Source: a virus (lineage: Duplodnaviria; Caudoviricetes). From it: 64,000 nucleotides of DNA. The stretch lies in IMG/VR virus record IMGVR_UViG_3300027708_000016. The stretch is one strand, 5' to 3'. The notes under the pieces were generated by a model. That model saw only the letters and a program-made list of their open reading frames with translations, searched no databases and had not been told where the DNA came from. Shown one piece after another: positions 15,113 through 48,776 of this stretch. Position 1 is the stretch's first letter. Each line of letters opens with the position of its first letter. A program made the translations under genes and the position numbers.

Positions 15113-15163
15113 TTAATATATACTTAATCAAATTGTTAAATATTTCCATTCAGAAATAATAAT

Positions 15164-29546: not shown

Positions 29547-29978
29547 TTAGTCTAAAATACCAAATTTTTCTAGTTCTTGTTTGGGTGCTTTACCTATTCT
29601 TAGGTTTAAAATGCCATTATAATAGTCTTTTCTGAATAAAACATCTTTTTCCATTTGTTCTTTTGCTTCAAAATAAGCCAAAGCCCATTTGGAATCGCAA
29701 GTTTTTAATATTTTAAATATAAATTTATCCTTACCATGAATTTTAATATCTTGCATTAAATCATTTGAAGAACTTGTATATGTTTTCCAATCGGATTCTT
29801 TCGAGTCAATCCTGTTTCTGGTTTTTCCTTTTAGAGGTTTTCTTTTAACCCTAGATTTACATTGTTTTTTACCAATATACTTCTTATTACTAACAGTATT
29901 TGTAATTTCATATATAAACCCAAAAGTATCTTCTGTTATTTCAACAGATTCATTTAAAATCCAGTGACCAGTATCCAT
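29547..29978 (-). CDS. GIY-YIG family endonuclease (Seg-like, stand-alone)
   Basis: GFIYEITNTVSNKKYIGKK, YYNGIL. Confidence 0.85.
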   Translation of the reverse strand: MDTGHWILNESVEITEDTFGFIYEITNTVSNKKYIGKKQCKSRVKRKPLKGKTRNRIDSKESDWKTYTSSSNDLMQDIKIHGKDKFIFKILKTCDSKWALAYFEAKEQMEKDVLFRKDYYNGILNLRIGKAPKQELEKFGILD

Positions 29979-32705: not shown

Positions 32706-32736
32706 AATATTTTAAATTGCTGATAGAATAGTCTTA

Positions 32737-33795
32737 ATGAAAATTTCTAGTAAAAAAATAGGATGTTTTTCTGATATTCACATAGGTTTAGGTCAAGATG
32801 GCAAACAATGGCACGATATTGCTTTGAAATTTGCTAAATGGGCATCCGAAAAATATAAAGAACTTGGTATTGATGAAATTATAATACCAGGCGATATATT
32901 TCACAATAGAAGCGAAATCAATGTAGCTACTTTAGCTACAGCAAAACAATTTTTTGATTATTTTAAAGATTTTACCGTTTATATTTCTAGCGGAAATCAC
33001 GATTGCTTTTACAAAAACAATAGCACGGTTAACTCTATATCAATTTTATCTGGATGGAACAATATTTTAATTATTGATAAAGAATGCGTTGTTCTTAAAA
33101 CACCTTATAAAGATATTGTTATGGTTCCTTGGGGCGTTGAATATGATCAAATACCAAAAACAGACGGTATAATATTTGGTCATTTTGAAATCAGTTCGTT
33201 TTATATGAATTCCTACAAGGTATGCGAACATGGAATGGAATCTAAACAACTTTTTAAAAAGTCTCCTATGATTATTTCTGGTCATTTCCACAAAAAGGAC
33301 GATAGAAAATATGATAAAGGTAGAATTGTTTATTTAGGTAGTCCATATCAACATAATTTTGGAGATACTGGTGATAGCAGAGGAATTTATGTATTAGATT
33401 TAGAGAAAACCGAACTACAATTTATAGAAAATAATATTTCACCTAAACATCTTAAACTTTCAACTAAAGCATTTGTGGAAAACCCCGAATCTATAAAAAG
33501 TGAATTGTTAAAGGAACAATTAAAAAACAATATTGTTAGTTTAATTATTGATACCGAAATTGATCAAGAAAAACTTGCACTTTTAACTTCAAAATTGCAA
33601 ATAATAGAACCATTATCAATTAGAACTGATTTTATTACAGATAATACAGGTATTGAAACGCTCGACAATACAAAGGAAATAGATTCTGGCAACTTAATTA
33701 AAGATATGGAGGATTTTGTAAACAACTTAACCATAGAAAACAAACAAGAGGTCATTGATTATCTGACCGAATCTTATAATTTATTATCTAAATGA
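32737..33795 (+). CDS. gp47: Recombination nuclease gp47 (Mre11/SbcD-like)
   Basis: FSDIHIG, PGDIFHNR, GNHD, FGHFEI, SGHFH, YLGSPYQ. Promoter at 32702-32729. Confidence 0.92.
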   Translation: MKISSKKIGCFSDIHIGLGQDGKQWHDIALKFAKWASEKYKELGIDEIIIPGDIFHNRSEINVATLATAKQFFDYFKDFTVYISSGNHDCFYKNNSTVNSISILSGWNNILIIDKECVVLKTPYKDIVMVPWGVEYDQIPKTDGIIFGHFEISSFYMNSYKVCEHGMESKQLFKKSPMIISGHFHKKDDRKYDKGRIVYLGSPYQHNFGDTGDSRGIYVLDLEKTELQFIENNISPKHLKLSTKAFVENPESIKSELLKEQLKNNIVSLIIDTEIDQEKLALLTSKLQIIEPLSIRTDFITDNTGIETLDNTKEIDSGNLIKDMEDFVNNLTIENKQEVIDYLTESYNLLSK

Positions 33796-34565
33796 ACAAT
33801 TTAATAGGAATAGGCATTCTTGACCTTTATACACAAGAAGATTTACAAAATTGTTGGGATTCCATTCCTGACAAGTATAAAAATCATGATGATTTATTGA
33901 CTCGTGTTTTTGTGGTAAGCAACAATGATAATAAACCAATAACTGATGCCCAGACAAAAAAATACTCAACTGCTGTTCAAATGGCAACAATGAGAAATTA
34001 TCTTGTTTCTCAAATGAGACTAAAGGGATGCAAATATTATTTTCTTTTACACTCTAATGTGATTATTAAAGATCCAGAAATATTTGAAAAAACACTTAAA
34101 TTAGCAGATACTTTCGGTACATGGGTAATCATGGGTCCTTCCACAATAGATCAAACAATTGAAGACGATAATGGGTTAAATTTAAACCTTTCAAAGAATT
34201 TAAATTCTGAATTTATGTTTTTATTTTCAGGAATTGTAAAAAACAATGGTTATTTTGATGAAAAGTTTTTTAATGGAAAAGATATTGATGTATTGGATTA
34301 TGTTTTAAAATTAAGAAATAAAAAAGCATACCCTGCTACAAATTATCATCCAATAATATCAGAAGGTTTAGAAATTAAAAAAACGCAAATTAATAAATTG
34401 GGATTAAAGGATATTCCTGACATAGACAGAAGCGTTCAAATAAGTTATGCAAACTTTTTTAATACGCACAAGTACATCCCAACCGAAACCGATCCCCCAC
34501 ACGTATCAGAAAAAGAACTTTTAGCATCAATGGAGGAAATTCAAAAAAATTATGCAAAACGGTAA
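33792..34565 (+). CDS. Degenerate GT-A fold glycosyltransferase-like protein
   Basis: LIGIGIL...YYFLLHSNVIIKD...NGYFDEKF is co-linear with the adjacent GT2 genes but has no clear DxD. Confidence 0.45.
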   Translation: MNNLIGIGILDLYTQEDLQNCWDSIPDKYKNHDDLLTRVFVVSNNDNKPITDAQTKKYSTAVQMATMRNYLVSQMRLKGCKYYFLLHSNVIIKDPEIFEKTLKLADTFGTWVIMGPSTIDQTIEDDNGLNLNLSKNLNSEFMFLFSGIVKNNGYFDEKFFNGKDIDVLDYVLKLRNKKAYPATNYHPIISEGLEIKKTQINKLGLKDIPDIDRSVQISYANFFNTHKYIPTETDPPHVSEKELLASMEEIQKNYAKR

Positions 34566-35367
34566 AATAGGAGTTGGATTAATAACATGCGATAGACCTA
34601 ATTTCTTTAATAAAAGTTTTTTATCTATTAAAGATATACCAAATATAGATATAGTCGTAGTGGATGATGGCATAACACCAGTTGTTGATGAAACTTTTGA
34701 AGTTGCATCTATTAAAACAATAGGCAAAATAGGTGTTGGTAAAGCAAAAAACAAAGCTTTAAAATATCTATTAGATAATAATTGTGAACATATTTTTTTA
34801 ATGGAAGATGATATTTTTATTAAGAATGGTGAAGTTTTCCAAAAATACATCGACACTGCTCTTAACACGGGCGTTAAACATCTTAATTTTGGATTGCATG
34901 GAAACCACAATCTTGATCTTAATAAAAAACCAATCGTCAGAAAGACCATAAATTATACTGATGGTTGTAAAATAGATTTGTACCCCAATCTTCTTGGTGC
35001 ATTTAGTTATTACCATAGAGATGTTTTAGATAAATGCGGGTTAATGGACGAAGAATACTATAATGCACTTGAACATGTTGATCATACCTATCAAATTATA
35101 AAAGAAGGATACCATCCTCCGTTTAGATGGTTTGCTGATATTCATAATTCCCAAAATTACCTTGAAGATATTGTTGAAGATCACAAAGAAAGTAAAATTA
35201 GATCGGATGAGGATTTTCACAAAAAATTTATAACAGCATTAGATATTTTTATTAAGAAAAACAACTTTTCAGTAATTGGCAATTACGGACCCCAAGAAAA
35301 AAATTACACAATCCAAGAAGTAATACAAAATCTTATAACAATTCACGAAAAATATGCCAGAAAATGA
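34552..35367 (+). CDS. Glycosyltransferase, GT2-like
   Basis: IGVGLITCDR, VVVDDG, IFLMEDDI, GLMDEEY...EHVD. Confidence 0.8.
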   Translation: MQNGKIGVGLITCDRPNFFNKSFLSIKDIPNIDIVVVDDGITPVVDETFEVASIKTIGKIGVGKAKNKALKYLLDNNCEHIFLMEDDIFIKNGEVFQKYIDTALNTGVKHLNFGLHGNHNLDLNKKPIVRKTINYTDGCKIDLYPNLLGAFSYYHRDVLDKCGLMDEEYYNALEHVDHTYQIIKEGYHPPFRWFADIHNSQNYLEDIVEDHKESKIRSDEDFHKKFITALDIFIKKNNFSVIGNYGPQEKNYTIQEVIQNLITIHEKYARK

Positions 35368-36136
35368 AAAAATAGGTGTTGGTATAACCACTTATAATTC
35401 AGAAGGGTATTTTAAGACTCTTTATGATTCTCTTCCTCTTGATAAGATTGACGAATTGGTTGTAGTTAATGGTGGAGATCGTTATGAGGGAAAATATGAA
35501 TGTGATTGGATACAACATAATAAAAACAGGTATCCTTCAGTGTGTAGGAATGATTGTATAACATTTTTGTTAAATAAACAATGTCAACACATTTTTTTAA
35601 TTGAAGATGACATGATTATAAAAAGTCCAAATATTTTTAATGAATATATCAATGCATCAAAGATTACGGGATTAAATTATTTTTGTTTTGCCAGTATATC
35701 AGTGGATGCGGGTGCTGCGCACGAAAGAACACCAAAATTAAAAGTAAATTATGGAAATTTACTAGAAGTTTATTTTTATAATAATACCTGCAACGAATTT
35801 ACCTATCATCATAGAAGTTGTTTTGAAAAAACAGGGTTATATGATGGAAACATGAGAGAATTATTTGATGCAGATATGGTTTATCGTCAAACCTTAAAAC
35901 ATCCAAATATTTCTCCTTTTTGGTGGTTTAGTGACCTCGGTAACAGTGATGATTTAATAAAAAATAATCCAGATGCGCACAGTCGATTACAAACCGATAG
36001 ACCAGACGGCTCAAGAGAACAGACTATTGTTGGAACAATGCAGTATTTTAAAAATAAACATAGTTTAGCAGTTAATGAAATACCAATTAAAACGGAACTT
36101 GAGGTTGTTGATCATTTAAAAAAAATAAAACCATGA
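35354..36136 (+). CDS. Glycosyltransferase, GT2-like
   Basis: IGVGITTYN, VVVNGG, IFLIEDDM, TGLYD; paralogous to the previous gene. Confidence 0.78.
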   Translation: MPENEKIGVGITTYNSEGYFKTLYDSLPLDKIDELVVVNGGDRYEGKYECDWIQHNKNRYPSVCRNDCITFLLNKQCQHIFLIEDDMIIKSPNIFNEYINASKITGLNYFCFASISVDAGAAHERTPKLKVNYGNLLEVYFYNNTCNEFTYHHRSCFEKTGLYDGNMRELFDADMVYRQTLKHPNISPFWWFSDLGNSDDLIKNNPDAHSRLQTDRPDGSREQTIVGTMQYFKNKHSLAVNEIPIKTELEVVDHLKKIKP

Positions 36137-36915
36137 AACTTGCTATAGGAATTAATATATTTGGATGTTATAAAAGACAAGATCATTGTATTGAAGTTTT
36201 AAACAAACTTGTATCCAAATATACAAATGACATAGAATTATATAATATAACATTTGAAAATGAAAAAAATTATTTATTGGGGTTTAAGCACTTACCATTA
36301 TTAAAACGAACCGCCAAAGATGTTGCGTTATATTCAATATCAAATAAACCAATAGCAAAAGATTTTTTTGATATTCTTTCTGAGCAAGATTGTGATTACT
36401 TTCTCTTTGTTAACAGTGACATAATGGTTACTGAAAAATTAATAAAGTTAATTTTAAAAGGCGAATATGAAACGTATTGCGTCTCTAGGCATGATGTTTA
36501 TGAAATAAACGATTTATCAGTTGATAAAATTATGCCTTTTAGAATTGAAATAGCTGGATTTGATGCATGGGCAGTTAAAAAAGATTGGTGGATTAAAAAT
36601 AGAGATTTATTTGACGATTATATTTACGCAGAAGCATTATGGGACGTTTTCTTTTCGGTTCAAATGTACAATAATAGTAATTGCATACTTTGTAATAAAG
36701 ATGTTTACTTGGCTCATGAAAAACATGAATTAAAATGGAATGAATTTTCAGCAGAGCATACACATAATGAAAAATTATGGAAAAGTACACCTTATCACGA
36801 AAGGTGGCATAAATTCATATACGATTATTTAACACAAAGACCAACATGGGGTCATTTTTTATACCCATTACCAGATGAGCTTGAAAAAGAAAAAGAATAT
36901 TTAAAAATTAAATGA
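36133..36915 (+). CDS. GT-A fold glycosyltransferase-like protein
   Basis: FLFVNSDI, GFDAWAV, EALWD, LAHEKH. Confidence 0.55.
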   Translation: MKLAIGINIFGCYKRQDHCIEVLNKLVSKYTNDIELYNITFENEKNYLLGFKHLPLLKRTAKDVALYSISNKPIAKDFFDILSEQDCDYFLFVNSDIMVTEKLIKLILKGEYETYCVSRHDVYEINDLSVDKIMPFRIEIAGFDAWAVKKDWWIKNRDLFDDYIYAEALWDVFFSVQMYNNSNCILCNKDVYLAHEKHELKWNEFSAEHTHNEKLWKSTPYHERWHKFIYDYLTQRPTWGHFLYPLPDELEKEKEYLKIK

Positions 36916-37580
36916 AATATATAAATAAATTTTACGAAAAGATATACATTATTCATTGGAAACCTTTAAAAGAAAGAAAAGAATATTTGTCTAAAAAACT
37001 TGAACAGCTTAATTTTTCACATTTAGTGGAATGGGTCGATCAATATGAAACCGAAGAAAATTTACACGGTATTAAAAATGTTTTTAAACTAAATCTAAGA
37101 CTTCTTGCTGTTAATATGTCACATATCTACTGTTACGAAGAACAAATTAAGCACCAATATAAAAACATTCTAATTTTAGAAGATGATATAGATTTTGGAG
37201 AACTAGACATCTTAACTTATTTGGATCAAGTTGCATTTGAATTTCAACAATTAGATGGAGATATTGCATTTCTAAGCACTTGTTGTGGATTAAAGGTTAA
37301 AAAATTAAAACCACCAACTTTATTATATTATGATAAAAATTACGTAACCCGTTGCATGGGTGCTTATGTTGTAAATCTAAGATGCGCTGAAAAATTAATA
37401 GCAATGTGTACAAATTACCATGCAATAGACAGAGTTTTAAATTATTCTTTGCCTCTTATAAATGTAAGAGTATTATGGTCGGGTTTACCTATTAGACAAG
37501 GCAGTGAAACAGGCAAGTATAAAAGCAGCTTTCCACTAGAAATAAGAGATGCTAACGGTAATTACAAAAATATATCATGA
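36912..37580 (+). CDS. Glycosyltransferase, GT25-like
   Basis: KIYIIHW...ERKEYL, SHIYCY, ILILEDDI, AYVVN, AIDRVL. Confidence 0.75.
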   Translation: MKYINKFYEKIYIIHWKPLKERKEYLSKKLEQLNFSHLVEWVDQYETEENLHGIKNVFKLNLRLLAVNMSHIYCYEEQIKHQYKNILILEDDIDFGELDILTYLDQVAFEFQQLDGDIAFLSTCCGLKVKKLKPPTLLYYDKNYVTRCMGAYVVNLRCAEKLIAMCTNYHAIDRVLNYSLPLINVRVLWSGLPIRQGSETGKYKSSFPLEIRDANGNYKNIS

Positions 37581-38170
37581 AACTAGAATTAATTAAAAAA
37601 TATTTTAACCCGCAAACCATATTAGATATAGGTGCACATCATGGCGAATTTAATCATCATTGTAGAGCTTATTTTCCTAATAGTTACATATTTTCAATTG
37701 AAGGTAATGAATTATGCGAAGAAATTTTAAAAAATAATAATTGTTTATATCTTATAGCACTTTTAGGTAAAGAAAAACAAAAAACCATTTTTTATAAAAC
37801 AAAACTTGATTTACATTGCACAGGTAATTCTCTTTATAAAGAGTTGACAACTCATTATAATGATATTAATTTAATAAAAGAAGAAAAAGAACTTCAAACT
37901 TTAGATGAAATTTTTTCAGCTAATGAAACTTTTGATTTGATTAAAATAGATACACAAGGTTCCGAGTTAGATATTTTAGAAGGAGGCAAAAAAATAGTTC
38001 AAAACGCAAAAGGCATTTTATTGGAAGTTTCCATAAAACCTTATAACGAAGGCGCACCGTTATATAATGATGTAATAAATTATATGAATAGCATAGGATT
38101 TGAAAATAAAGAATTTTTAGATGGTTCAATGGAATCAATTCAAGCAGATATTCTTTTTATAAAAAAATGA
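37577..38170 (+). CDS. FkbM family methyltransferase
   Basis: ILDIGAHHGEF, SIEGN, TLDEIF, LIKIDTQGSELDILEGG. Confidence 0.9.
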   Translation: MKLELIKKYFNPQTILDIGAHHGEFNHHCRAYFPNSYIFSIEGNELCEEILKNNNCLYLIALLGKEKQKTIFYKTKLDLHCTGNSLYKELTTHYNDINLIKEEKELQTLDEIFSANETFDLIKIDTQGSELDILEGGKKIVQNAKGILLEVSIKPYNEGAPLYNDVINYMNSIGFENKEFLDGSMESIQADILFIKK

Positions 38171-38859
38171 AACTTTATACCGTTTTTACAGAGTCACATT
38201 ATGAAATGTTCAAAGACTATTTTATTAAATCTTTTCCCTTTGACACGAATTTAGAATTAGTAATTAAATTCAAACCACAGGTTTGTGCATCATCAGAGTT
38301 CCAAAGTGAAGGGTGGAGAGATACTATGAAATATAAAGTTCAATGTTTCATTGATGCTGCATATGAAACAAAAGATGGCGAATGTTTTATGTTTTCAGAC
38401 CCAGATATACAATTTTTTAAACCATTCCATGATGATGTTGTTAAAGAACTAGGTGATTTTGATGCAGCATTCCAAAATGATTATGGTGGCGGTGTTAATA
38501 CGGGATTTTTTATAATGAGATCCACCCCAAAAACTCGTGCATTTTTAAAAACCGTTCAAGGAAATCTTGAAAAATTTCCAGAAGAACAAGTTTGTTTTAA
38601 TTATATAATCAATAACTTTGACAAATTGCCAAAAGTTGCATATAAATGGAAGATGCTACCAAGAGAATATTGGACTTATGGTGAAAAAGCAATACAGATG
38701 GGTGTTAATGGACAACCTTTTAGCACATGGAGTGGAGAAGGAGATTTTGATATTCCTGAGAACATAATAATTCATCATGCTAATTGGGCAACACCATTCA
38801 AAAACAAAATAAAAATTCTTGATGTCGTAAAGGAAAAATACAATGCTAGAAACATTTAA
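38167..38859 (+). CDS. Nucleotide-diphospho-sugar transferase (GT77-like)
   Basis: FMFSDPDIQFF, VNTGFFIMRS, EQVCFN, IHHANW. Confidence 0.75.
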   Translation: MKLYTVFTESHYEMFKDYFIKSFPFDTNLELVIKFKPQVCASSEFQSEGWRDTMKYKVQCFIDAAYETKDGECFMFSDPDIQFFKPFHDDVVKELGDFDAAFQNDYGGGVNTGFFIMRSTPKTRAFLKTVQGNLEKFPEEQVCFNYIINNFDKLPKVAYKWKMLPREYWTYGEKAIQMGVNGQPFSTWSGEGDFDIPENIIIHHANWATPFKNKIKILDVVKEKYNARNI

Positions 38860-39724
38860 AAAATACTGCATCAGGGCAATATACCCACCTTACCCACCTT
38901 ATCATCAAGGTGATTATTTGGAACAATATTTTTTAAAATTTTATTTAAAAAATATAGAAGAATTTAAAAAGCTAGAAAGACAATTTATTCCAGTTTGTTG
39001 GACTGATCTTTATTTAAAAGCTTTACACATAATAAATGATTTAGCGGTTGATTTGTCAAGATTGGATAAAGGTAAAAAATACTTTACCGTATCTCAACAT
39101 GATGATGCACCAGCAGTGCAGTTATTACCACCAGATACGATTAATTTCTCCGCTGGTGGCAATCAACCCAATACCATACCAATTCCATTAATATGTAGCG
39201 CAATACCAAACCCACCAAACCAAAAAAAAGATATATTTTGTAGTTTTGTTGGTAGCGTAACATCACCATCTACAACCTTTGGCGTATTAGCACATGATAT
39301 AAGAATAAAAATGCTCAAAACATTAAAGGATAACCCCGAATATCTTTTAAAACCAAGAAACTGGTCAGAAGATATTAAAAAAGAAAGACAGGATATGTTT
39401 ATAGATATTACTGCTAGAAGTAAATTTACGCTTTGTCCAAGAGGATATGGTGCAACTAGCTATAGAATGTACGAAGCAATGCAGTTGGGTTCTGTTCCAG
39501 TTTACATATACAACGATTTTCCCTTTATACCTTACGCAGACAAGATTAACTGGAACGAAATAGCAGTTTTGATAAACCAAAATGATATGGATAATTTAGA
39601 TGCTATATTAAAATCAATTTCCGATGATCAATACAATCATATGGTTAATAAAATTAAAGAGATATATCCAAAATACTTTACACTTGAGGCAACATGTAAT
39701 AATGTTTTAGAACATTTAAAATGA
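38843..39724 (+). CDS. Exostosin-family glycosyltransferase (GT47-like)
   Basis: IFCSFVGS, SKFTLCPRGYG, RMYEAMQLGSVPVYI. Confidence 0.82.
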   Translation: MLETFKKYCIRAIYPPYPPYHQGDYLEQYFLKFYLKNIEEFKKLERQFIPVCWTDLYLKALHIINDLAVDLSRLDKGKKYFTVSQHDDAPAVQLLPPDTINFSAGGNQPNTIPIPLICSAIPNPPNQKKDIFCSFVGSVTSPSTTFGVLAHDIRIKMLKTLKDNPEYLLKPRNWSEDIKKERQDMFIDITARSKFTLCPRGYGATSYRMYEAMQLGSVPVYIYNDFPFIPYADKINWNEIAVLINQNDMDNLDAILKSISDDQYNHMVNKIKEIYPKYFTLEATCNNVLEHLK

Positions 39725-40482
39725 AAAAAATATTATTTGTAATTGCAAGATATAATGATAATAGGCAGCAAATATTTGATGAAATTATCTCTCCTAGAAA
39801 CAAAGCTTATTGTGATAAGCACGGATTTAAATATATTGTAATTGGTAATTCCGCACCTTTGTTTTTATATAGGCACAATCCCACATGGTGGAAATTTTCT
39901 ATTGTAAAAGATCTTATTGATCAAGGAAAACTAGAAAATGGTGATATCCTTGCTCATATCGATGCTGATATGTATTTTGTTAATGATTCGGTTTCAATTG
40001 AAACACCAAAATCTTTTTCATATGCAATAGATTCTGGTAATACCCATTGCATGGGTTGGTACAGCATAAAAGTTAATGATTGGTCAAAAAAATTAATCAA
40101 TAATATTCTTTCACAAGAAAGATTTAATAAATTACACAATAATGTCACAATACATGACAGATTTAAAACATATTCTAGTTTTTGGAATGAATTTAGAGAG
40201 CAAGCAAGTTGGTATAGTTTAGCAGGAATTAAAAGACATTCCGATAAACCGTTTTGGGAATATCCCAACAATGGTTTTCATAGTGAAATGAATGAAGATG
40301 TAGTCTATTCAATTGATGAATTAAATGAAAATGTTCAAATATTTGATACGGGATTTAATGTAACCGAATGGCAAGGCGAAAGTGGTTGCCAGTTTAATAT
40401 TAATAAAGTTTCAGTCGATAATGTTGTAATTAGACATTTTGCTGGTGGTCAAGATTGGAATAGTGTTAAAAATTGGTTATAA
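39721..40482 (+). CDS. GMA12/MNN10 (GT34)-like glycosyltransferase
   Basis: KAYCDKHGFKY, PTWWKF, HIDADMYF, VIRHFAG. Confidence 0.65.
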   Translation: MKKILFVIARYNDNRQQIFDEIISPRNKAYCDKHGFKYIVIGNSAPLFLYRHNPTWWKFSIVKDLIDQGKLENGDILAHIDADMYFVNDSVSIETPKSFSYAIDSGNTHCMGWYSIKVNDWSKKLINNILSQERFNKLHNNVTIHDRFKTYSSFWNEFREQASWYSLAGIKRHSDKPFWEYPNNGFHSEMNEDVVYSIDELNENVQIFDTGFNVTEWQGESGCQFNINKVSVDNVVIRHFAGGQDWNSVKNWL

Positions 40483-41175: not shown

Positions 41176-41183
41176 AAATTAAT

Positions 41184-41927
41184 TTATATTAGAATCCAAT
41201 TTTTTAAATCCAAAGGTCTTAAATCATGATCATCTGGTTTAGGATTTGGTAAATAGGGCCATTTATTATCGCTTATTGGAAAATATATTTTATCTGCATT
41301 TGATATATATGCTGCAAACCATGAAAAAGTTGATTTTGATATACAGATTTTTTTTGCATTTTTAAGATAAATAAAATCTGACAAAGAATCTAATGATCTT
41401 ATATTACATCCAAGACTACTAAAGTCTTTTAAATAATCGCTATAAGGCTCATCAGTAACAATAGTGCATCGATTTGGCTTTTCCATTAATATAGCTTTTA
41501 AATACAAATTTTTATCAGTTATACTTCCACCACCAGCAAATACATAATCTGTTAAACGTATATGTATTACTAATTCATCATCTAATGGTTTTTCATATTG
41601 ATTTTCGTTTTCAATTTGCAAATAATTTATTACATTCTGTCTTCCTATTTGTTTGAAACATTCATATTTATGTATCATAAAATCAATACACCAACCATTT
41701 TTTGAATTTTTAACATTTTCAAAGAATTTTTCTCTATTATTATTGTAAATTTCACTTGCTGATTTAATATTATCGTGTACTATACCATCTTTTATTTCAT
41801 AGGTGTTTAAAAACCCTTGTATTTTTTCAGGTATAAACTTCATACCAGTTAATTTATGACAATGCATAGCCGCTACGAAATAATGTAGTCTATTACCCAT
41901 TCTACCATCGGATCTTATTGTTATCAT
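41184..41927 (-). CDS. Alpha-1,2-fucosyltransferase-like (GT11)
   Basis: GRMGNRL, VIHIRLTDY, IVTDEP, SKSTFSWFAAYIS. Confidence 0.8.
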   Translation of the reverse strand: MITIRSDGRMGNRLHYFVAAMHCHKLTGMKFIPEKIQGFLNTYEIKDGIVHDNIKSASEIYNNNREKFFENVKNSKNGWCIDFMIHKYECFKQIGRQNVINYLQIENENQYEKPLDDELVIHIRLTDYVFAGGGSITDKNLYLKAILMEKPNRCTIVTDEPYSDYLKDFSSLGCNIRSLDSLSDFIYLKNAKKICISKSTFSWFAAYISNADKIYFPISDNKWPYLPNPKPDDHDLRPLDLKNWILI

Positions 41928-41972
41928 TTTATTAAATAGTATTAAAATTTATAATGTAACATCAATTATATT

Positions 41973-42671
41973 TTAAACCCATACTCTAAAAGATAATCTT
42001 CTATTTCTAAAATTTAAAAAATCACTTGGTTCAATAAATTCTATATTTCCTGCGATATGATTAAGCATATGTGCATCAAATTGCTCATTGTTTACGGAGT
42101 TTTCGCAAAAATGTTTAATTTGATCATCAGATAAATCTTTTAATTTTAAAAAATTATTATAAGAAGTAATAAAAAAATGGCTACTTGTTTCTGTTCTATT
42201 AAACTGTTTGTCTCCTATATGGAAACATGGTGATACGTTGGCATTTTCATTAAAAAATTTCTCAGCATCTTTAATTCTTACAAAATTATCATGTCTAGAT
42301 CTAATGATATAATCATATTTTTTATTGTTTTCTTTTAGATATTTAGCAATATAAATCAAATTGTATGCAAAAAAAGGAAATCCATCATCACGACATTGAT
42401 GATATTGACTCATATCTTTCTGTTCCAAAAAAATTGGAATATCAACAACATCTTTTATTTGTTCATTTAAAAGGTTGATATCATAATCATAAAGATAATT
42501 TGCGCCTTCGTTTACTTTATGATTGCTATAGGTTCCTTTTTTGGGATACCAAGTTAAAAAAATAACTTCGACATCATGAGTCGGAAAGCAATCCTTTAAT
42601 GCTTGAATATTGGTTTTAATATCATCTAAACACTCTCTAATTGCGCCTACAAAAATCAATCCTAATTTCAT
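41973..42671 (-). CDS. Glycosyltransferase-like protein (WavE-type pattern)
   Basis: LIFVGAIR, VIFLTW, YDYIIRSRHD; late TAAATA box at 42678-42683. Confidence 0.5.
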   Translation of the reverse strand: MKLGLIFVGAIRECLDDIKTNIQALKDCFPTHDVEVIFLTWYPKKGTYSNHKVNEGANYLYDYDINLLNEQIKDVVDIPIFLEQKDMSQYHQCRDDGFPFFAYNLIYIAKYLKENNKKYDYIIRSRHDNFVRIKDAEKFFNENANVSPCFHIGDKQFNRTETSSHFFITSYNNFLKLKDLSDDQIKHFCENSVNNEQFDAHMLNHIAGNIEFIEPSDFLNFRNRRLSFRVWV

Positions 42672-42722
42672 TGATAATATTTATCACATGTTGATTTTTT
42701 TCAAGTATTGATATTTATTGTA

Positions 42723-43472
42723 ATGGAAAGTGATATTAACATATTGATACCAATGGCAGGATTAGGCAGCAGATTTGCACATACCCATCCCAACCAATTA
42801 AAACCACTAATTGATGTTTGTGGGGTGGCAATGATTAAAAGAGTAATTGAAAATTTAAATCAAAGCCAAAACGCAAATTTTATATTTGTGATACCTAATA
42901 TTTTGAAAAATAACAAGGATTTTTTTAATATATTAAATGAATCAAACATAAAATACAAAATATTAGTAACAGAAACCCTTACGGAAGGACCCGCTTGCAC
43001 GGCTTTATTAGCAAAAGATTTTATAAACAACAACACGCCATTAATAATAACTAATTGTGATCAATACATTGCAGATTTCAGTTTAAATGACCTATTAACT
43101 TTTTCAAAAATAAACAATGCACATGGAGTTGTTGGTGTATTCCATTCTAATTCGAATAAAAATAGTTATATTAAACTAGGAAATGATTTAAGAATACAGG
43201 AAATTAGAGAAAAAATTGTCATTAGTAATATTGCAACTAATGGTTTGCATTTTTGGTCTAAAGGTGTTTATTTTGTTGAGTCGGCAGAAAAAATGATTTC
43301 TAAAAATGAAAAATATAATAATGAATATTATATAGCACCTTCTTATAATAATATGATAACAGATAACAAAAATATTTTACCATACTATTATAATTTACAT
43401 TTTCCAATCGGAACGCCCGACGATTTAAACATTTTTGTAAATGAAGTATTTAAAACTATAAAACACAAATGA
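42723..43472 (+). CDS. Sugar-phosphate nucleotidyltransferase (BcbE-like capsule type)
   Basis: ILIPMAGLGSRF, KPLIDV, TEGPACTAL, IITNCDQ, EIREK, NNEYYIAPSYN, IGTPDDL. Confidence 0.88.
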   Translation: MESDINILIPMAGLGSRFAHTHPNQLKPLIDVCGVAMIKRVIENLNQSQNANFIFVIPNILKNNKDFFNILNESNIKYKILVTETLTEGPACTALLAKDFINNNTPLIITNCDQYIADFSLNDLLTFSKINNAHGVVGVFHSNSNKNSYIKLGNDLRIQEIREKIVISNIATNGLHFWSKGVYFVESAEKMISKNEKYNNEYYIAPSYNNMITDNKNILPYYYNLHFPIGTPDDLNIFVNEVFKTIKHK

Positions 43473-44356
43473 AAAAATTAAAAATAAACTTTGTAGACTT
43501 TTGGCCCAACCTATTTAAAGATGATAATTACTTCTATAATCTTTTAAAAACAAAATATGATGTTGAAATAGATGAAGAAAACCCTGATATATTATTTTTT
43601 TCGGTTGATTACAATAACGAAAGAAACAGGGATAGATATAAAAACTGTTTAAAAATCTTTTATACGGGTGAAAACGTTGAACCAAATTGGAATGAATGCG
43701 ATTTAGCTTATACTTTCAGACATTCAAATGATCCAAGGGAATATCGTTTGCCTTTATGGGCATTGCATTTGAATTGGTTTAATAGACCCTATATCGCAGA
43801 AAGAGATCATGCTTATTTACACGATTTAGAGTCATTTTTAGATAAAACCAAAATTAAAAAACTAAACAAAACTGGTTTTTGTTCATTTGTTGCATCACAA
43901 CCCAAAGGAAAAAGAGTTGATTTTGTTCCAAAGCTTTTTAATTACAAACCAGTACATTGCGCAGGACGTTTATATAATAACATAGGTGATGTTTTAGTTT
44001 GTAGAGGTGACCAAATAGAAAAAATAAACTTTTTAAAAAAATTTAAATTTAATATCGCAATGGAAAACACATCTTGTCAAGGTTATTGCACAGAAAAAAT
44101 AATACATTCAATGTTTGGAATGAATATTCCCATATATTGGGGATCAACATCTGTTGAAAGCGATTTTAATCCAGAATCCTTTATTAATTGTCATAATTTT
44201 TCTTCTGATGAAGAAATTATAGAAAAAATTAAAGAATTGGACATGGATGTAGAAAAATATGTTGATATGTTAAAAAAACCTTGGTTTAAAGATGGTAAAA
44301 TTCCAGATTCCGTTCAACCTGATAATGTTATATCTTTAATATCTAATAAAATATAA
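43469..44356 (+). CDS. Alpha-1,3-fucosyltransferase-like (GT10)
   Basis: KIFYTGEN, FCSFVAS, KFKFNIAMENTSCQGYCTEKI, PIYWG. Confidence 0.88.
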   Translation: MKKLKINFVDFWPNLFKDDNYFYNLLKTKYDVEIDEENPDILFFSVDYNNERNRDRYKNCLKIFYTGENVEPNWNECDLAYTFRHSNDPREYRLPLWALHLNWFNRPYIAERDHAYLHDLESFLDKTKIKKLNKTGFCSFVASQPKGKRVDFVPKLFNYKPVHCAGRLYNNIGDVLVCRGDQIEKINFLKKFKFNIAMENTSCQGYCTEKIIHSMFGMNIPIYWGSTSVESDFNPESFINCHNFSSDEEIIEKIKELDMDVEKYVDMLKKPWFKDGKIPDSVQPDNVISLISNKI

Positions 44357-45051
44357 TGAAACCTGATAAAATTTATATAATTCATTATACTAAATTAAAA
44401 GACAGGTATTCAAATTTAATTTCAATTTTAGAAAAATCTAAAATACCTTTTGAATTTATAACACAATATGATAAAGAAGATTTAAAAGAAGATATATTAA
44501 ATAAATTTTATCTACCAAATCCCGAAAAATTTACAAACAAAATTAAACCTTTATGGGATTGTAATATAAATACATTCAGAGTTTTAAGTTCTTCAGAATT
44601 GTCTTGCGCAATTAAACAACTAACTGCTATTAAAAAATTATCTCAAGAGTGTAAAAATTTTGGCATGATCTTAGAAGATGACATTATGTTCGATACGAAT
44701 TTTAATTTACTTTTTAAAAAGTATATCCAAGAAACACCAAACGATTGGGATGCTATTTTTTTAGGTGAAGGTTGCGGTTTTGAATTTCAAAAGTATAAAT
44801 TATCAACAAGTATAAGAAAGAGTGAAAATTCTTATCTAGTCAATAATCCCGCTACAAACTGCGCCGAAGCATATTTATTAAAACCTGATATTGCATCTAA
44901 AATATATGAATCATCATTACCGTTTCAATTAGCTTTTGATTGGGAACTTGCATATCAGTTATATAAATTGAAAGCTAAAACATATTGGTGGTTCCCATCA
45001 ATTGCAAAACAAGGTTCCAGAACAGGACAATATCAATCATCCTTAAGATAA
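44356..45051 (+). CDS. Glycosyltransferase, GT25-like
   Basis: KIYIIHYTKLKDR, SELSCAIKQ, MILEDDI, AEAYLL, AFDWEL. Confidence 0.75.
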   Translation: MKPDKIYIIHYTKLKDRYSNLISILEKSKIPFEFITQYDKEDLKEDILNKFYLPNPEKFTNKIKPLWDCNINTFRVLSSSELSCAIKQLTAIKKLSQECKNFGMILEDDIMFDTNFNLLFKKYIQETPNDWDAIFLGEGCGFEFQKYKLSTSIRKSENSYLVNNPATNCAEAYLLKPDIASKIYESSLPFQLAFDWELAYQLYKLKAKTYWWFPSIAKQGSRTGQYQSSLR

Positions 45052-45052
45052 A

Positions 45053-45778
45053 ATGAGAATAGCAATTTGTTTATCAGGGTTAACTAGATCCATGTGGTAT
45101 TGTTTTCCTGTATTAAAAGAATATATAATAAACGAATTAAATGCAGATGTTTTCTTACATACTTGGGAAATAGATAACGGTGGGCAAACTCCATGCGATG
45201 ATGCAGCAAAATCATGTTCCATCGAAGAAAAAAAAGAATATATTGAAAACAGAATAAAACCAAAAAGATACGTAATAGAAAATTACAACGATTTTTTACA
45301 AAAATACCCAAGCCAAACTCATCCATCAACTGCTCCCATGTATTATTCAATCATGAAGTCTAATGCCCTAAAAAAAGAATATGAATTGGAAAATAATTTT
45401 AAATATGATGTTGTTTTTAGGATAAGAATGGACGTAATGTTTGATACTACGATTGATAAAGAAGAATTAAAAAACGTCATAGAGCAAAAAAAACTATATA
45501 TAGGTTACCATAGTGTAGATAAAATTGAATCTCAACCAAAAATAAGTGATTTTTTTGCTTTTTCAACTTCTGAAAACATGGATTATTATTCGGATGCATT
45601 CAAATTATGGGAAAATAATAGATATTTAAATGGAGAAGATGTATTGAATACACATATATTAAATGCAAATTTAAAATATAAATGGACTAACACGAAAATG
45701 AAATTAACCTACCGTTGGCAAACGTGTAGAGCATATTTCGCCTATGCATATAGACAAAATTTTGCATATCAGGATTGA
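45053..45778 (+). CDS. Glycosyltransferase-like protein (WavE-type pattern)
   Basis: MRIAICLSG, DVFLHTW, MYYSI, KYDVVFRIRMD, SDFFAF. Confidence 0.55.
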   Translation: MRIAICLSGLTRSMWYCFPVLKEYIINELNADVFLHTWEIDNGGQTPCDDAAKSCSIEEKKEYIENRIKPKRYVIENYNDFLQKYPSQTHPSTAPMYYSIMKSNALKKEYELENNFKYDVVFRIRMDVMFDTTIDKEELKNVIEQKKLYIGYHSVDKIESQPKISDFFAFSTSENMDYYSDAFKLWENNRYLNGEDVLNTHILNANLKYKWTNTKMKLTYRWQTCRAYFAYAYRQNFAYQD

Positions 45779-45810
45779 TTTTTTAAAATTTTATTATATA
45801 ATTCTTTTAC

Positions 45811-46773
45811 ATGAAAAAAATTGCTTTTTATTTGCCGCATATTGATATACAAGGAACAGGGGTGTCAGTTTTAGATTATTGTAAATTTAATCAAGAAATT
45901 CTTGGTAATAAATCATTTATGATTCATGATTTAAATCATCCAGCCAATCATGAACTAGCCATTGAAAAATTTAAAAATAATAATATAGAAATAATATCTT
46001 TGAAGGGTAACGAAGATACGAATGAATTGGAAAGAAAATTGGACGAACTCAAAGTTGATGCAGTTTACATTCAAAAAACAGGAAGAAAGGATGACGGCAG
46101 ATTTGCTAAAAATAAACCTTCATTCATACATGTAATAGGAACCCAAAATGATCCTCACGGGACAGTCTATGCTTATGCTAGTGAATGGTTAAATCAGCAT
46201 TGCACAGGGGGAACTTATCCAGTTGTTCCTTATATGGTTCATCTACCTGAACACCATGACAATTTTAGAGATAAACTAAAACTACCCGAAAATGCAATAG
46301 TTTTTGGTAGAACAGGTGGAATATATTCTTGGAACATGCCTTGGGTTAGTCAGACTATAGAAAAAGCACTCTCGTTAAGAGATGATATATACTTTTTATT
46401 CGTACAGACCCCTCAATTTATAAAACACGAAAGAGTTATATATACAAGTCCATTTTCTGACCTTTATATAAAAAGAAAATTCATTAACACATGTGATGCA
46501 ATGATTCACGCAAGAGCAGAAGGCGAATCATTTGGTATGGCTTGTGCAGAATTTTCTTATAGTAATAAACCAGTTATAACATATAGTAATTCACCAGAAA
46601 GAAATCATATTTACGTTTTAAAGGATAAAGGTTTATATTATGATTCTCCTCAAACACTGTTAGATATACTTTTAAAATTTGAAATTCAAGATAAAGATTG
46701 GAATGCCTATCGTGAATTTACGCCAGAATCAGTAATTAACCAATTCAAAAAGGTTTTTATTGATAAAATATGA
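45811..46773 (+). CDS. GT-B glycosyltransferase (GT4-like)
   Basis: GTGVSVLDY, VFGRTGG, DAMIHARAEGESFGMACAEFS. Promoter TTGATT-N16-TATAAT at 45775-45802. Confidence 0.8.
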   Translation: MKKIAFYLPHIDIQGTGVSVLDYCKFNQEILGNKSFMIHDLNHPANHELAIEKFKNNNIEIISLKGNEDTNELERKLDELKVDAVYIQKTGRKDDGRFAKNKPSFIHVIGTQNDPHGTVYAYASEWLNQHCTGGTYPVVPYMVHLPEHHDNFRDKLKLPENAIVFGRTGGIYSWNMPWVSQTIEKALSLRDDIYFLFVQTPQFIKHERVIYTSPFSDLYIKRKFINTCDAMIHARAEGESFGMACAEFSYSNKPVITYSNSPERNHIYVLKDKGLYYDSPQTLLDILLKFEIQDKDWNAYREFTPESVINQFKKVFIDKI

Positions 46774-47090
46774 AAATTCTAAATATAGAAGATTTTATAG
46801 GTGGATGGTTCATTGGAGATTTTGAACCATCGGTTTTAAAAACCAAAGATTTTGAAGTTTGTTTTAAAAAACATGTTAAGGATGAAATTTGGCCCAAACA
46901 TTATCATCGAATAGCAACCGAAATTAATTATTTGATTAAAGGTGAAATGATAATACAGGGTAAACTACTAAAAACGGGTAATATTTTTATCTTAGAACCA
47001 AATGAATGGGCTAATCCAGTATTTTTACAAGATTGTGAACTTATAGTAGTAAAAACACCTTCTATAAAAGGTGATAAATATGAAAATTAA
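46770..47090 (+). CDS. Cupin-fold protein
   Basis: GGWFIGDFEP, cupin metal motif HYHRIATEINYLIKG, FILEPNE. Confidence 0.8.
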   Translation: MKILNIEDFIGGWFIGDFEPSVLKTKDFEVCFKKHVKDEIWPKHYHRIATEINYLIKGEMIIQGKLLKTGNIFILEPNEWANPVFLQDCELIVVKTPSIKGDKYEN

Positions 47091-47118
47091 TTGACTTTTT
47101 TACTATTTATTATATAAT
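47091..47118 (+). promoter_or_regulatory. Sigma70-like promoter TTGACT-N16-TATAAT of the RuBisCO-like gene
   Basis: Near-consensus boxes ending 9 nt before the ATG at 47128. Confidence 0.7.
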
Positions 47119-47127
47119 ATTATTATT

Positions 47128-48342
47128 ATGCTTAAATACGACATTTTTAAACCAGAATACAAATTAGACTCTTCCTTCTTTGCTAATTATTTTATTGTAA
47201 CATACTTAATTGGTTCAAAAACCGATTTAAAAGATGCCGCATGGAATCTAGCTATCGGGCAATCAATTGGAAATCCAAGTAAGCGTTCCGAATTTGAGAG
47301 CCAAGATTTGATTGACAATCATTGTGCTATTATTTTACATGATGAAAAATCCTTAGAGAATCTTAAAGAAGGTATTGTTAAGATTGCTTTTGCTGAAGCA
47401 AATATTAACTTTAAAACGGACGGAGTATCCCAATTGCTAGTCCAAATAATGGGAGGTCAATGTGACATTGATATTTTTGAAAAGTGTGTTATTAAAGATA
47501 TAAAATTAACTCCAAATATGGAGAACTGTTTGCAGGGACCTAAAATTGGTCTAAAAGAAATGAGAGAATATTGTGGTGTATCACAGGAAAAGCCTTTATT
47601 TGGTGGGATTGTGAAACCAAAAGTTGGTCTTTCGCCACAAAAAAATCTTGATTTGGTAAAAAAACTCATTGATGGCGGCTGTAACTTCATAAAAGAAGAT
47701 GAAATTCTTTCAGATCCCGATCATTGTAGAATTGAAGATCGTGTTCCCCCTGTAATGGATTATATTAAAAGCACTAATGCAAAAGTTTATTACGCAGTTT
47801 CAATCCATTCCGATCCTGCACACATTTTAAATCGTGTTAAGCAAGTTTATGAATTGGGTGGAAATGCTGTTCATGTAAATTTCCATTGTGGATTAGGTGT
47901 TTATAAGTCTATTAGAGAACTTGATTTACCAATTCTAGTTCACTTCCAGAAAAGCGGTGATAAAATTTTAAATTGTTATGATCATAAATTTGCAATTGAT
48001 CAAGATGTAATCTTTAAACTTGTTGGGCAAAGTGGCTGTTCGACGCTTCATGCTGGTATGATCGGTGGATACATGGATAATGAAACACAGGCGGTAAAGA
48101 AGACTATTTCCATGTTGAATGATATAAATTGCGTCCCAGCTTTAAGTTGTGGAATGCACCCAGGTTTAATTGATTATATTTTAGATGTGGTTGGACATAG
48201 CAACTGGATGGCAAATGTCGGCGGTGCATTAACATCACATCCAAGTGGTACTTTGGCAGGTACAAAGGCTATGAGACAAGCAATCGATAAGAATTACGGG
48301 GATGAATATCATCAAGCCATTGAAAAATGGGGTAAGAAATGA
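47128..48342 (+). CDS. RuBisCO-like protein (form IV, non-carboxylating)
   Basis: GGIVKPKVGL (K175/K177), FIKEDE (K201/D203/E204), TLHAG, PALSCG, NVGG...HPSG; 404 aa. Confidence 0.92.
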   Translation: MLKYDIFKPEYKLDSSFFANYFIVTYLIGSKTDLKDAAWNLAIGQSIGNPSKRSEFESQDLIDNHCAIILHDEKSLENLKEGIVKIAFAEANINFKTDGVSQLLVQIMGGQCDIDIFEKCVIKDIKLTPNMENCLQGPKIGLKEMREYCGVSQEKPLFGGIVKPKVGLSPQKNLDLVKKLIDGGCNFIKEDEILSDPDHCRIEDRVPPVMDYIKSTNAKVYYAVSIHSDPAHILNRVKQVYELGGNAVHVNFHCGLGVYKSIRELDLPILVHFQKSGDKILNCYDHKFAIDQDVIFKLVGQSGCSTLHAGMIGGYMDNETQAVKKTISMLNDINCVPALSCGMHPGLIDYILDVVGHSNWMANVGGALTSHPSGTLAGTKAMRQAIDKNYGDEYHQAIEKWGKK

Positions 48343-48755
48343 TAGTAATTTCTCATAGAGGGAATACTACTGGCCCAGTTAAACAAACCGAAAATCGACC
48401 CCAAACAATTCAACCTTTATTGGATAAAAATATCCACGTGGAAATTGATGTTTGGTTAATAGGTGACAGTTTTTTCTTGGGTCATGATGACCCTTTATAT
48501 AAAACCGATATAAAATTTTTATTACAAAAAAATCTCTGGTGTCATGCAAAAAACTTAAAATCATTAGAAGAAATGTTAAAACACGATATTAATTGTTTTT
48601 GGCATGAAAACGATAAACACACTTTAACATCTAATGGTTATATTTGGACTTATCTTAATCAAAAAACATGTGATAAATCCATAATAGTTGATTTATCAAA
48701 AAACTGGAAAGAAAAAAATTATAATTGCTATGCCATTTGTGTTGATTACTTGTAA
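48339..48755 (+). CDS. PLC/GDPD-like phosphoesterase
   Basis: ISHRGN, EN, VEIDVW, LGHD, WCHAKN; overlaps the RuBisCO-like stop (ATGA). Confidence 0.72.
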   Translation: MIVISHRGNTTGPVKQTENRPQTIQPLLDKNIHVEIDVWLIGDSFFLGHDDPLYKTDIKFLLQKNLWCHAKNLKSLEEMLKHDINCFWHENDKHTLTSNGYIWTYLNQKTCDKSIIVDLSKNWKEKNYNCYAICVDYL

Positions 48756-48776
48756 AAACAATTTATAATTAGGTAA

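Follow-up and report, generated by a model that had tools for sequence, protein, structure and literature searches.

Hypervariable clusters rich in glycosyltransferase (GT) genes are already known as a kind in aquatic T4-like phages. Clusters described as lipopolysaccharide (LPS) or cell-wall-type clusters include the host-recognition cluster of pelagimyophages (PMC7029224) and those of the cyanomyophages S-SCSM2R and P-SSM2 (PMC12801897). S-CAM9 and S-SKS1 carry such clusters as well. Here we describe a locus of 20 open reading frames (ORFs), called i01 to i20, between gp47 and gp46 of an uncultured freshwater T4-like phage with a GC content of about 30%. The locus lies in a 64,000-nt stretch of DNA, hereafter the window (IMG/VR record IMGVR_UViG_3300027708_000016; Duplodnaviria, Caudoviricetes). 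Our preferred reading, to which we give a probability of roughly 0.5, is that this is a clade-wide modular glycan-assembly locus for the stepwise cytoplasmic glycosylation of a phage acceptor, most probably virion proteins.

Glycans and sugar-nucleotide routes have been described in other phages. The cluster F1 mycobacteriophages Che8 and Rita are reported to carry capsid glycans, according to the citations of Freeman et al. (2023) in PMC11256854 and PMC12619734. Phage RuBisCO-like proteins (RLPs) of a "form IV-like" type were described by Jaffe et al. (2018), who left their function open (bioRxiv 10.1101/386292). In the uridine diphosphate (UDP)-D-arabinofuranose pathway (RB69, DLP3, HY126 Afh genes), ribulose-5-phosphate is converted by an isomerase, a phosphatase and a nucleotidyltransferase to a nucleoside diphosphate (NDP)-pentose (PMC13326640).

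The locus resembles the aquatic LPS clusters in that conserved modules of the T4 core are separated by non-syntenic regions with many GTs and nucleotide-sugar enzymes. The latter comprise epimerases, transaldolase, phosphoheptose isomerase and a nucleotidyltransferase of the i13 type; the function of the aquatic clusters was assigned without experiment. In contrast to them, the present locus is placed inside the gp47-gp46 recombination pair and not in the tail-fibre region, and it has a fixed anchor of three paralogs, one of which lacks the DXD motif. Moreover, about 15 GT-fold genes lie here in one 15-kb run, whereas 13 GTs per genome were considered possibly the highest number in a marine phage (PMC12801897). 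The lineage is also distant: its gp46 is less than 30% identical to every cultured-phage record. Thus, the placement, the conserved anchor with its DXD-less paralog, the density of GT-fold genes and the alternation of donor pathways in three ways at one site (see below) are new here.

The interval between gp47 and gp46

The local gene order is uvsY-uvsW-gp55-gp47-[20 ORFs]-gp46-442-amino acid (aa) protein-gp43. The same order is found in relatives and parallels that of T4, in which a gap of 444 bp with two small ORFs parts genes 47 and 46. The core genes that border the interval are as follows.

gp47, 32737-33795, plus strand: Mre11/SbcD-type nuclease subunit, Pfam Metallophos; left conserved flank
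gp46, 48777-50585, plus strand: Rad50/SbcC-type subunit, Pfam SMC_N and AAA_23; right conserved flank

The gp46 of the window matches cyanophage gp46 in a tblastn search, and cultured phages have no megablast match to the 17.8-kb region. A search of IMG/VR for one exact 44-mer was also negative. The interval holds 20 compact ORFs, and the gene calls of the Joint Genome Institute (JGI) also give 20. An earlier interpretation, made from the DNA letters alone (the sequence-only reading), had correctly seen that gp47 and gp46 are parted but counted 19 genes between them; the three-gene minus-strand block that it placed at 40477-42671 is real. The ORFs encode 15 GT-fold proteins, one FkbM methyltransferase and a four-gene donor module, which is composed of an NDP-sugar pyrophosphorylase (i13), a cupin (i18), an RLP (i19) and a GDPD-like protein (i20). 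Non-coding DNA between 32.7 and 52 kb amounts to 286 nt in all. The GC content, the GC content at third codon positions (GC3) and the codon use of the island genes fall inside the range of the core genes.

The density of sugar genes inside a replication module prompted the suspicion that the region is an assembly artefact or a recently captured host capsule locus; nothing else supports this idea. Two JGI metagenomes and two Logan assemblies, which come from other samples, contain stretches of 12-21 kb with all junctions at 100% or 99.97% identity. The reproduced junctions include those of the nested minus-strand block and of the cupin-RLP-GDPD trio. Furthermore, at least 90% of the words sampled from 39000-48900 are present in six freshwater runs; RNA data sets were absent from the listing for this region. 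Because at least 5 independent assemblies and samples reproduce the junctions, the island is not a chimera. A chimeric host-capsule insert is ruled out by the independent assemblies and the freshwater runs together. Many relatives have syntenic islands, GC and GC3 are in the phage range, and the ESM Atlas neighbours of the unnamed island genes are 81-100% viral. Thus, we regard the probability of an artefact or a recent capture as negligible.

A conserved anchor and a variable remainder

Searches with gp46 and gp47 recovered 51 IMG/VR loci, and gp47 shows 49-81% identity in 35 IMG/VR relatives. Where both genes lie on the same contig of a relative, the interval measures 6.2, 6.7, 7.5, 9.2, 10.95, 11.3 or 16.7 kb. 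The following three genes stand directly after gp47 in every relative, down to 45% gp46 identity.

i01, 33792-34565, plus strand: GT-A-derived paralog of i02 and i03 without DXD; anchor gene
i02, 34552-35367, plus strand: GT2-like GT-A transferase with EDD kept; phrog_2456/1579, E 7e-27; anchor gene
i03, 35354-36136, plus strand: GT2-like GT-A transferase with EDD kept; phrog_2456, E 8e-18; anchor gene

When ten intervals were compared, 66 gene families were obtained, 49 of which are singletons. The families that can be annotated are GT2, GT7-type, DUF5672, sugar C- and O-methyltransferases, DegT aminotransferase and SDR epimerases. Thus, the proposal that a comparison of related phages would reveal a hypervariable cassette in the gp47-gp46 interval was borne out. 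In contrast, the description of the locus as an inserted island has to be given up. Because all relatives found fill the slot and share the three-gene anchor, the locus dates back to the ancestor of the clade, and turnover is limited to its inner and distal parts. In the two closest relatives, the island genes in common with the window are 59-75% identical, versus 80-89% for uvsW, gp47, gp46 and gp43; i09 departs from the former range with 85% identity. Neither direct nor inverted repeats were found around the lineage-specific segments. The sole notable repeat is a similarity between the promoters before i17 and before the RLP gene (78% identity over 36 nt).

The assignment of i02 and i03 to the GT-A type is based on the EDD motif, the PHROG GT families and a profile match to GalT1 (5hea). 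In distant relatives, the counterpart of i03 is fused to a GT7N/7C domain, so that a two-domain protein of about 490 aa is formed. For i01, neither a Pfam nor a PHROG match was found. In its family, x-S-N (mostly HSN or NSN) replaces EDD in 116 of 116 aligned members, and i01 also lacks the D/N-D-G motif of i02 and i03. The family is apparently confined to this lineage (contigs up to about 220 kb). Because the replacement of DXD is conserved, i01 seems to be a repurposed GT-A domain and not a product of decay. To judge from its sequence, i01 is possibly a metal-independent enzyme or a non-catalytic partner of i02 and i03. Where the sequence-only reading had listed three GT2 genes, i02 and i03 stand by their EDD motifs and PHROG matches, whereas i01 is their paralog without DXD.

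Beyond gp46, a gene at 50615-51943 (plus strand) encodes a 442-aa protein in the gp46-gp43 gap, where T4 keeps genes 45/44/62. This protein shows 65-82% identity across the clade and a mean column identity of 81%, and is better kept than gp46. Thus, both borders of the island are well conserved. The protein matches phrog_7162 "glycosyltransferase" and, weakly, Streptomyces phage glycosyltransferases. Pfam and PDB profile searches with it were empty, and its structure model is poor (pLDDT 43).

On the other side, the precomputed Pfam annotation of the identical JGI contig places a gene for a GIY-YIG homing endonuclease of the SegE type immediately upstream of uvsY, at 29547-29978 (minus strand). 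Homing endonucleases of this type can promote local recombination and marker exchange.

Transferases and methyltransferase

The Pfam cut-off was passed by GT25 (twice), FkbM, Nucleotid_trans, Exostosin_GT47/RXYLT1_C, FucT_N together with GT10, NTP_transferase and RuBisCO_large. The transferase and methyltransferase genes that follow the anchor are listed here.

i04, 36133-36915, plus strand: GT-A fold transferase, by structure model only
i05, 36912-37580, plus strand: GT25, Pfam PF01755, E 4e-9
i06, 37577-38170, plus strand: FkbM-type methyltransferase, Pfam PF05050, E 3e-15; phrog_8156
i07, 38167-38859, plus strand: Nucleotid_trans (GT77-type), Pfam PF03407, E 2.5e-10
i08, 38843-39724, plus strand: exostosin/GT47-type, Pfam PF03016, E 4e-19; RXYLT1_C, E 1e-11
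i09, 39721-40482, plus strand: GT34-like by language-model features alone
i10m, 40477-41175, minus strand: GT2-like GT-A; ESM Atlas structural match to GT2 clusters, TM 0.7-0.8
i11m, 41184-41927, minus strand: GT11-type (fucosyltransferase superfamily), Pfam PF01531 below cut-off, E 2e-4
i12m, 41973-42671, minus strand: DUF7796-like, GT-A-like fold (ESM Atlas features and structure)
i14, 43469-44356, plus strand: GT10 alpha-1,3-fucosyltransferase type; Pfam FucT_N, E 1e-21, and GT10, E 1e-18
i15, 44356-45051, plus strand: GT25, Pfam PF01755, E 1e-11
i16, 45053-45778, plus strand: DUF7796 protein, Pfam PF25072, 26.2 bits versus a cut-off of 27; phrog_13607
i17, 45811-46773, plus strand: GT4-like GT-B; Pfam Glycos_transf_1 below cut-off, E 2e-4

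Four of the GT-fold genes, i04, i10m, i12m and i16, had not been named by the sequence-only reading. For i04, sequence searches gave no match and the PDB profile search was empty. However, the AlphaFold2 (AF2) model of i04 (pLDDT 81.6) retrieved TarP, TarS and SpsA in a Foldseek search (E 4e-8, TM about 0.5). The i10m copy in the sibling phage L081 is 76% identical, and i12m had no match in any relative examined. As for i16, a gene of this type adjoins the RLP module in 6-7 other phages, and i16 is a probable transferase that travels with this module.

The GT11-type protein i11m scored 21.1 bits against PF01531 (cut-off 23.9), and five homologs (52-59% identity) carry PF01531. Its GT11 motifs, GRMGNRLH (N-terminal G-R-M-G-N) and HIRLTDY, are both variant forms of the consensus. 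An IMG/VR scan with i11m as the query gave no match. The GT10 protein i14 bears the E-N-T...Y-C-T-E-K donor motif of alpha-1,3-fucosyltransferases. In i17, an E-x7-E motif is present (ESFGMACAE at residue 239), and this protein occurs at 35-83% identity in many relatives.

The feature similarity of i09 to PF05637 clusters in the ESM Atlas is 0.97. Nevertheless, i09 had no Pfam match at E values up to 10, its PDB profile search was empty, and hhalign detected no relation between i09 and i07. The i09 family comprises 343 homologs, the top 120 of which are at least 53% identical, from both freshwater and marine (Tara) data. A DAD motif is invariant in this family, and none of the 343 homologs has a Pfam domain. 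This family merits characterisation of its own.

The family list of the sequence-only reading was thus confirmed by Pfam for the two GT25 genes, FkbM, the GT77-type gene, GT47 and GT10. Its GT11 and GT4 genes remain below the Pfam cut-off, although the motifs are present, and its GT34-like gene (i09) has language-model features only, with negative hhalign and PDB searches. We do not follow its view that some of the families are eukaryote-type: the GT34- and GT77-like proteins sit in large ESM Atlas clusters that are almost purely viral. Therefore, these families belong to the ordinary phage gene pool.

The donor-supply slot

The first donor-module gene, i13, lies apart from the rest in this phage; the other three precede gp46.

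i13, 42723-43472, plus strand: NDP-sugar pyrophosphorylase, Pfam NTP_transferase
i18, 46770-47090, plus strand: small metal-binding cupin (HxH...E), sugar-phosphate-isomerase-like; phrog_24762
i19, 47128-48342, plus strand: RLP, phage "IV-like" type; Pfam RuBisCO_large PF00016, E 2e-34
i20, 48339-48755, plus strand: half-size GDPD-like phosphoesterase; HRGN..EN..ExD..GHD alignment; phrog_34507

The product of i13 matches PDB 4evw (E 9e-11) and phrog_3980 (E 5e-53), and that of i20 matches PDB 7e0v (E 4e-4). The PDB profile matches of i18 are cupin_2 (E 2e-5) and a mannose-6-phosphate isomerase cupin (E 2e-4); those of i19 are form III RuBisCO and the YkrW enolase (RLP enolases). When residues were mapped by motif (not by structural alignment), i19 was found to keep KPK, KEDE, H294- and H327-type residues and SCG, to have F at the R295 position (HF) and to lack Lys in loop 6. 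Because the enolisation residues are kept and the carboxylase residues are changed, i19 fits enolisation or isomerisation and not carboxylation. Like the phage RLPs of Jaffe et al., i19 is a divergent RLP of a myovirus-type genome without the carboxylase residues. What sets it apart is its link, within a glycan locus, to a module of nucleotidyltransferase, cupin and GDPD-like protein.

The comparison with relatives showed which parts of the locus are exchanged. In the closest relatives, the gap between i09 and the GT10 gene is occupied by an SDR epimerase, whereas the minus-strand block and i13 are found there in this phage; i16 is added after the second GT25 gene, and the cupin-RLP-GDPD trio is added before gp46. 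In the sibling L001 (IMG/VR 3300006108_000013), which is the closest relative, the gp46-proximal end has a GT4 gene and three methyltransferases. At 5631-9969 of L001, before gp46, we observed a SIS isomerase, a transaldolase, a GHMP kinase, a cytidylyltransferase-like nucleotidyltransferase and an epimerase. To judge from these gene families, the row at the site of the RLP trio is a predicted NDP-heptose-type pathway.

In a third sibling, L080/L081 (gp46 80% identical), i10m and i11m are kept on the opposite strand. Here the genes before gp46 encode a DUF7796 protein, a HAD-like protein, a 225-aa protein, a fusion of nucleotidyltransferase and RpiB, a cupin (47% to i18) and a GDPD-like protein (42% to i20), and there is no RLP. 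One further viral contig has this RpiB variant. In contrast, RpiB was found in none of 20 RLP loci, and genes of the i13, i18 and i20 types stand beside the RLP gene on 19 of 20 RLP-bearing viral contigs. A GDP-mannose 4,6-dehydratase is present in 10 of 16 RLP loci, and FkbM and DUF7796 genes are often adjacent. Because the RLP is 63% identical in phages whose gp43, where found, is only 26-38% identical, the RLP module is horizontally mobile.

Cultured cyanomyophages have an i13-type nucleotidyltransferase within GT/epimerase clusters. In Synechococcus phage S-SKS1 (L085 5001-6428), an i13-type pyrophosphorylase is fused to RibB (DHBP synthase; E 1e-47). The cluster of this fusion contains a fucosyltransferase, a phosphoheptose isomerase, a transaldolase and an epimerase. 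RLP, RpiB and RibB canonically handle ribulose-5-phosphate or ribulose-bisphosphate. Because all three bind ribulose phosphates, we infer that the donor module runs from a pentulose phosphate to an NDP-sugar. Likewise, a ribulose-phosphate-derived donor is suggested by the fact that RpiB stands in for RLP around the same nucleotidyltransferase/cupin/GDPD core. It should be mentioned that this exchange is not one-to-one: the RpiB variant bears two extra genes.

The logic is that of the UDP-arabinofuranose pathway, in which ribulose-5-phosphate is diverted to an NDP-pentose for phage transferases. However, that pathway uses a SIS isomerase, a kinase fusion and a HAD phosphatase, whereas RLP or RpiB, a cupin and a GDPD-like protein are used here. 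As a tentative extension, which we consider possible but doubtful, the RLP would act as a pentulose-phosphate isomerase/enolase on the way to an NDP-sugar not described before, DUF7796-type transferases would pass this sugar to a virion glycan, and i01 would be the chain-starting partner that recognises the acceptor.

Promoters

The following sigma70-like promoters were found.

32702-32729, plus strand: before gp47; TTGAAA-N16-TAGAAT with TG, 10/12; reads through i01-i09
45775-45802, plus strand: before i17; TTGATT-N16-TATAAT, 10/12
47091-47118, plus strand: before the RLP gene; TTGACT-N16-TATAAT, 11/12, the best in a 20-kb scan
48742-48769, plus strand: before gp46; TTGATT-N16-TATAAT, 10/12

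Thus, four sites that score at least 10/12 lie in intergenic gaps, whereas about 0.2 would be expected in 286 nt from the regional density. The T4 late-promoter word TATAAATA occurs 13 times versus 17.6 expected and thus shows no enrichment. The promoter type of the island is early/middle and not T4 late. The sequence-only reading had proposed that the island shares the promoter signatures of the core genes. This is correct for 45775-45802, which resembles the sites before gp47, the RLP gene and gp46; its second example, at 42678-42683, is only weak. Its conclusion that the island is integrated into the phage programme agrees with the shared promoter type, the tight packing and the phage-like composition.

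At all four promoters, the -10 hexamer ends 6-9 nt before the ATG and there is no clear Shine-Dalgarno sequence (32702-32736, 45775-45810, 47091-47127 and 48742-48776). Because the -10 hexamer is so close to the ATG, the mRNAs may be leaderless or near-leaderless. The same arrangement is seen before the ORFs that start at 5337 and 10030, both on the minus strand.

What is glycosylated

According to the preferred reading, the clade would consist of freshwater T4-like phages of roughly 200-220 kb that carry the locus in the gp47-gp46 gap. The locus has three layers: the fixed anchor i01-i03 on the gp47 side, with two DXD-bearing GT2-like enzymes and their DXD-less paralog; short, soluble transferases and methyltransferases that are exchanged fast; and a donor slot on the gp46 side, the module of which probably makes an unusual NDP-sugar from a metabolite of the ribulose-phosphate type. 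The island genes would be transcribed together with the recombination genes from the sigma70-like promoters. Successive cytoplasmic enzymes would then build a branched, fucose-type, methylated oligosaccharide on an acceptor specified by the phage. The sequence-only reading had also proposed a fucosylated and methylated oligosaccharide, which is plausible from the GT10/GT11 motifs and the FkbM gene. The acceptor may be Ser/Thr-rich fibres or the capsid, on the model of mycobacteriophages Che8/Rita and chloroviruses. In this model, chains would be initiated by the anchor on a conserved acceptor, whereas diversity of their exposed outer part would come from the variable genes. A conserved start of the chain together with a variable outer part is what would be expected from a conserved phage acceptor and a diversifying surface.

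Among i02 matches in cultured phages, 558 of 591 records are Mycobacterium phages, Rita gp101 included. The identity between i02 and the N-domain of Rita gp101 is 30% over 248 aa (E 1e-19). Because these mycobacteriophage transferases are the only sizeable set of i02 homologs in cultured phages, a virion acceptor is favoured. The Che8/Rita operon is similar to the present locus in several respects: a phage transferase of about 480 aa has an N-terminal GT-A domain to which i02 and i03 are homologous and with which they share PHROGs, the transferases are soluble, and the third anchor paralog of the distant relatives here is likewise a two-domain protein of similar length. However, the operon has 2-4 genes and not 20, and its owners are siphoviruses of Actinobacteria.

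In chlorovirus PBCV-1, virus-encoded soluble transferases glycosylate the capsid without host endoplasmic reticulum or a lipid carrier. Features of the PBCV-1 machinery are an enzyme of the exostosin type, branched glycans with fucose, and the methylation of sugars. PBCV-1 differs in being a eukaryotic giant virus with scattered genes and not one cassette.

Alternatively, the transferases may remodel the host envelope: they would extend or cap the lipooligosaccharide (LOS)/LPS core, the O-antigen, the capsule or a teichoic-acid-like polymer through host carriers and exporters, and the benefit would be a block of superinfection or progeny that do not stick to debris. This is the usual literature reading of the LPS genes of cyanomyophages and pelagimyophages (PMC7029224, PMC12801897). 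GT25 is the family of LOS galactosyltransferases and GT10 and GT11 are those of the fucosyltransferases of Lewis-antigen O-chains; the nearest folds to i04 are TarP and TarS; and the early/middle promoters are common to gp47 and gp46.

Systems of this kind were searched for in the island and in related records, among them three near-complete relatives (195-212 kb, at least 92% complete, two with terminal repeats). None of the 20 island proteins has a hydrophobic segment (19-mer score of at least 1.6; i13 counted from its ATG), so that the membrane-embedded hallmark of GtrABC-type systems (GtrA flippase/GtrB/Gtr) is absent from the island. The priming transferase Bac_transf (PF02397), the flippase Wzx (PF01943) and the polymerase Wzy_C (PF04932) were not found in the island or in five related records, which include the three near-complete ones, and no ligase was found in the island or in the relatives. 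Moreover, 15 transferases and a private donor pathway far exceed the known serotype-conversion systems, and an anchor that is conserved across 45%-diverged phages suits a phage-encoded acceptor better than variable host glycans. The virion module, furthermore, has sulfotransferases of its own. Thus, remodelling of the host envelope is the main rival, possible but less probable.

These sulfotransferases belong to the stretch between the portal gene gp20 and gp15, in which we observed three fibre-like proteins (10071-11753, 12482-15112 and 15164-17155), a radical SAM/SPASM enzyme and two sulfotransferases of the carbohydrate type, one of them Stf0-like. The fibre-like proteins near the sulfotransferases contain 20-28% Ser+Thr.

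Genes of the gp20-gp15 stretch: 5357-6238 (plus strand), 6180-7238 (plus strand), 8241-9095 (minus strand), 10071-17155 (minus strand)

This stretch is possibly a second, virion-linked locus for glycan synthesis or sulfation, and as genomic context it speaks for virion proteins as the acceptor.

Since all enzymes are soluble and the locus names no acceptor, infection might instead yield a soluble or lipid-linked product, for example a glycolipid, a free oligosaccharide or a small molecule with sugars attached. There is no phage precedent for such a product, and no polyketide synthase/nonribosomal peptide synthetase or lipid synthase is present in the interval of any relative. Therefore, we consider this idea unlikely.

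The position of the locus in the replication/recombination module also brings DNA hypermodification to mind, because T4 has a-gt by gene 47 and b-gt by genes 42/43. In this case, the glycan would be placed on a modified base as by T4 a-gt/b-gt or the arabinosyl system of RB69/DLP3, and the donor module would be analogous to the phage UDP-arabinofuranose pathway; a phage route from ribulose-5-phosphate to an NDP-pentose for DNA is known (PMC13326640). However, the ThyA family (PF00303), which is needed for 5-hydroxymethylcytosine (5hmC), 5-hydroxycytosine (5hoC) or 5-hydroxymethyluracil (5hmU), was not found in four related records, three of them the near-complete ones, whereas a control search was positive in 10 of 14 genomes. 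Furthermore, the known DNA glycosyltransferases have GT-B or dedicated folds and number 1-3 per phage, whereas about 13 enzymes here are of the GT-A type, and there is no precedent on DNA for the methyltransferase or for fucosyl-type enzymes of GT10/GT11. Because the relatives have no base hydroxylase of the ThyA type, DNA is a very unlikely target.

Several points weigh against glycosylation of virion proteins. The assignment of virion protein as the most likely acceptor is indirect. Bacterial GT25, GT10 and GT11 enzymes are likewise soluble or peripheral and typically build LOS/O-antigen on lipid carriers of the inner membrane; TarP, which is structurally closest to i04, is encoded by a prophage and acts on the wall teichoic acid of the host; and the sigma70-like early/middle promoters are no less in keeping with host remodelling than with decoration of the virion. 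The likeness to the mycobacteriophage GTs is just 30%, over a generic GT-A domain. The absence of Wzx, Wzy and ThyA was established in relatives and not in the complete genome of this phage. Finally, no GDP-fucose pathway gene and no SDR dehydratase or epimerase is present within the window.

Significance

Glycan clusters are among the commonest unexplained "auxiliary" genes of abundant aquatic phages and are routinely labelled as LPS genes without a test. The locus described here is tractable for comparison, with its conserved anchor, swappable transferases and donor pathway, and two recognisable core-gene borders. The enzymes that are specifically worth expressing are the anchor i01-i03 and the four-gene RLP module. 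If the alternation of RLP, RpiB and RibB holds, it would give the large phage branch of the RuBisCO superfamily its first testable biochemical role. Should virions prove to be the target, large freshwater phages would wear fast-diversifying glycan coats, with a bearing on host recognition, grazing, aggregation and defence evasion.

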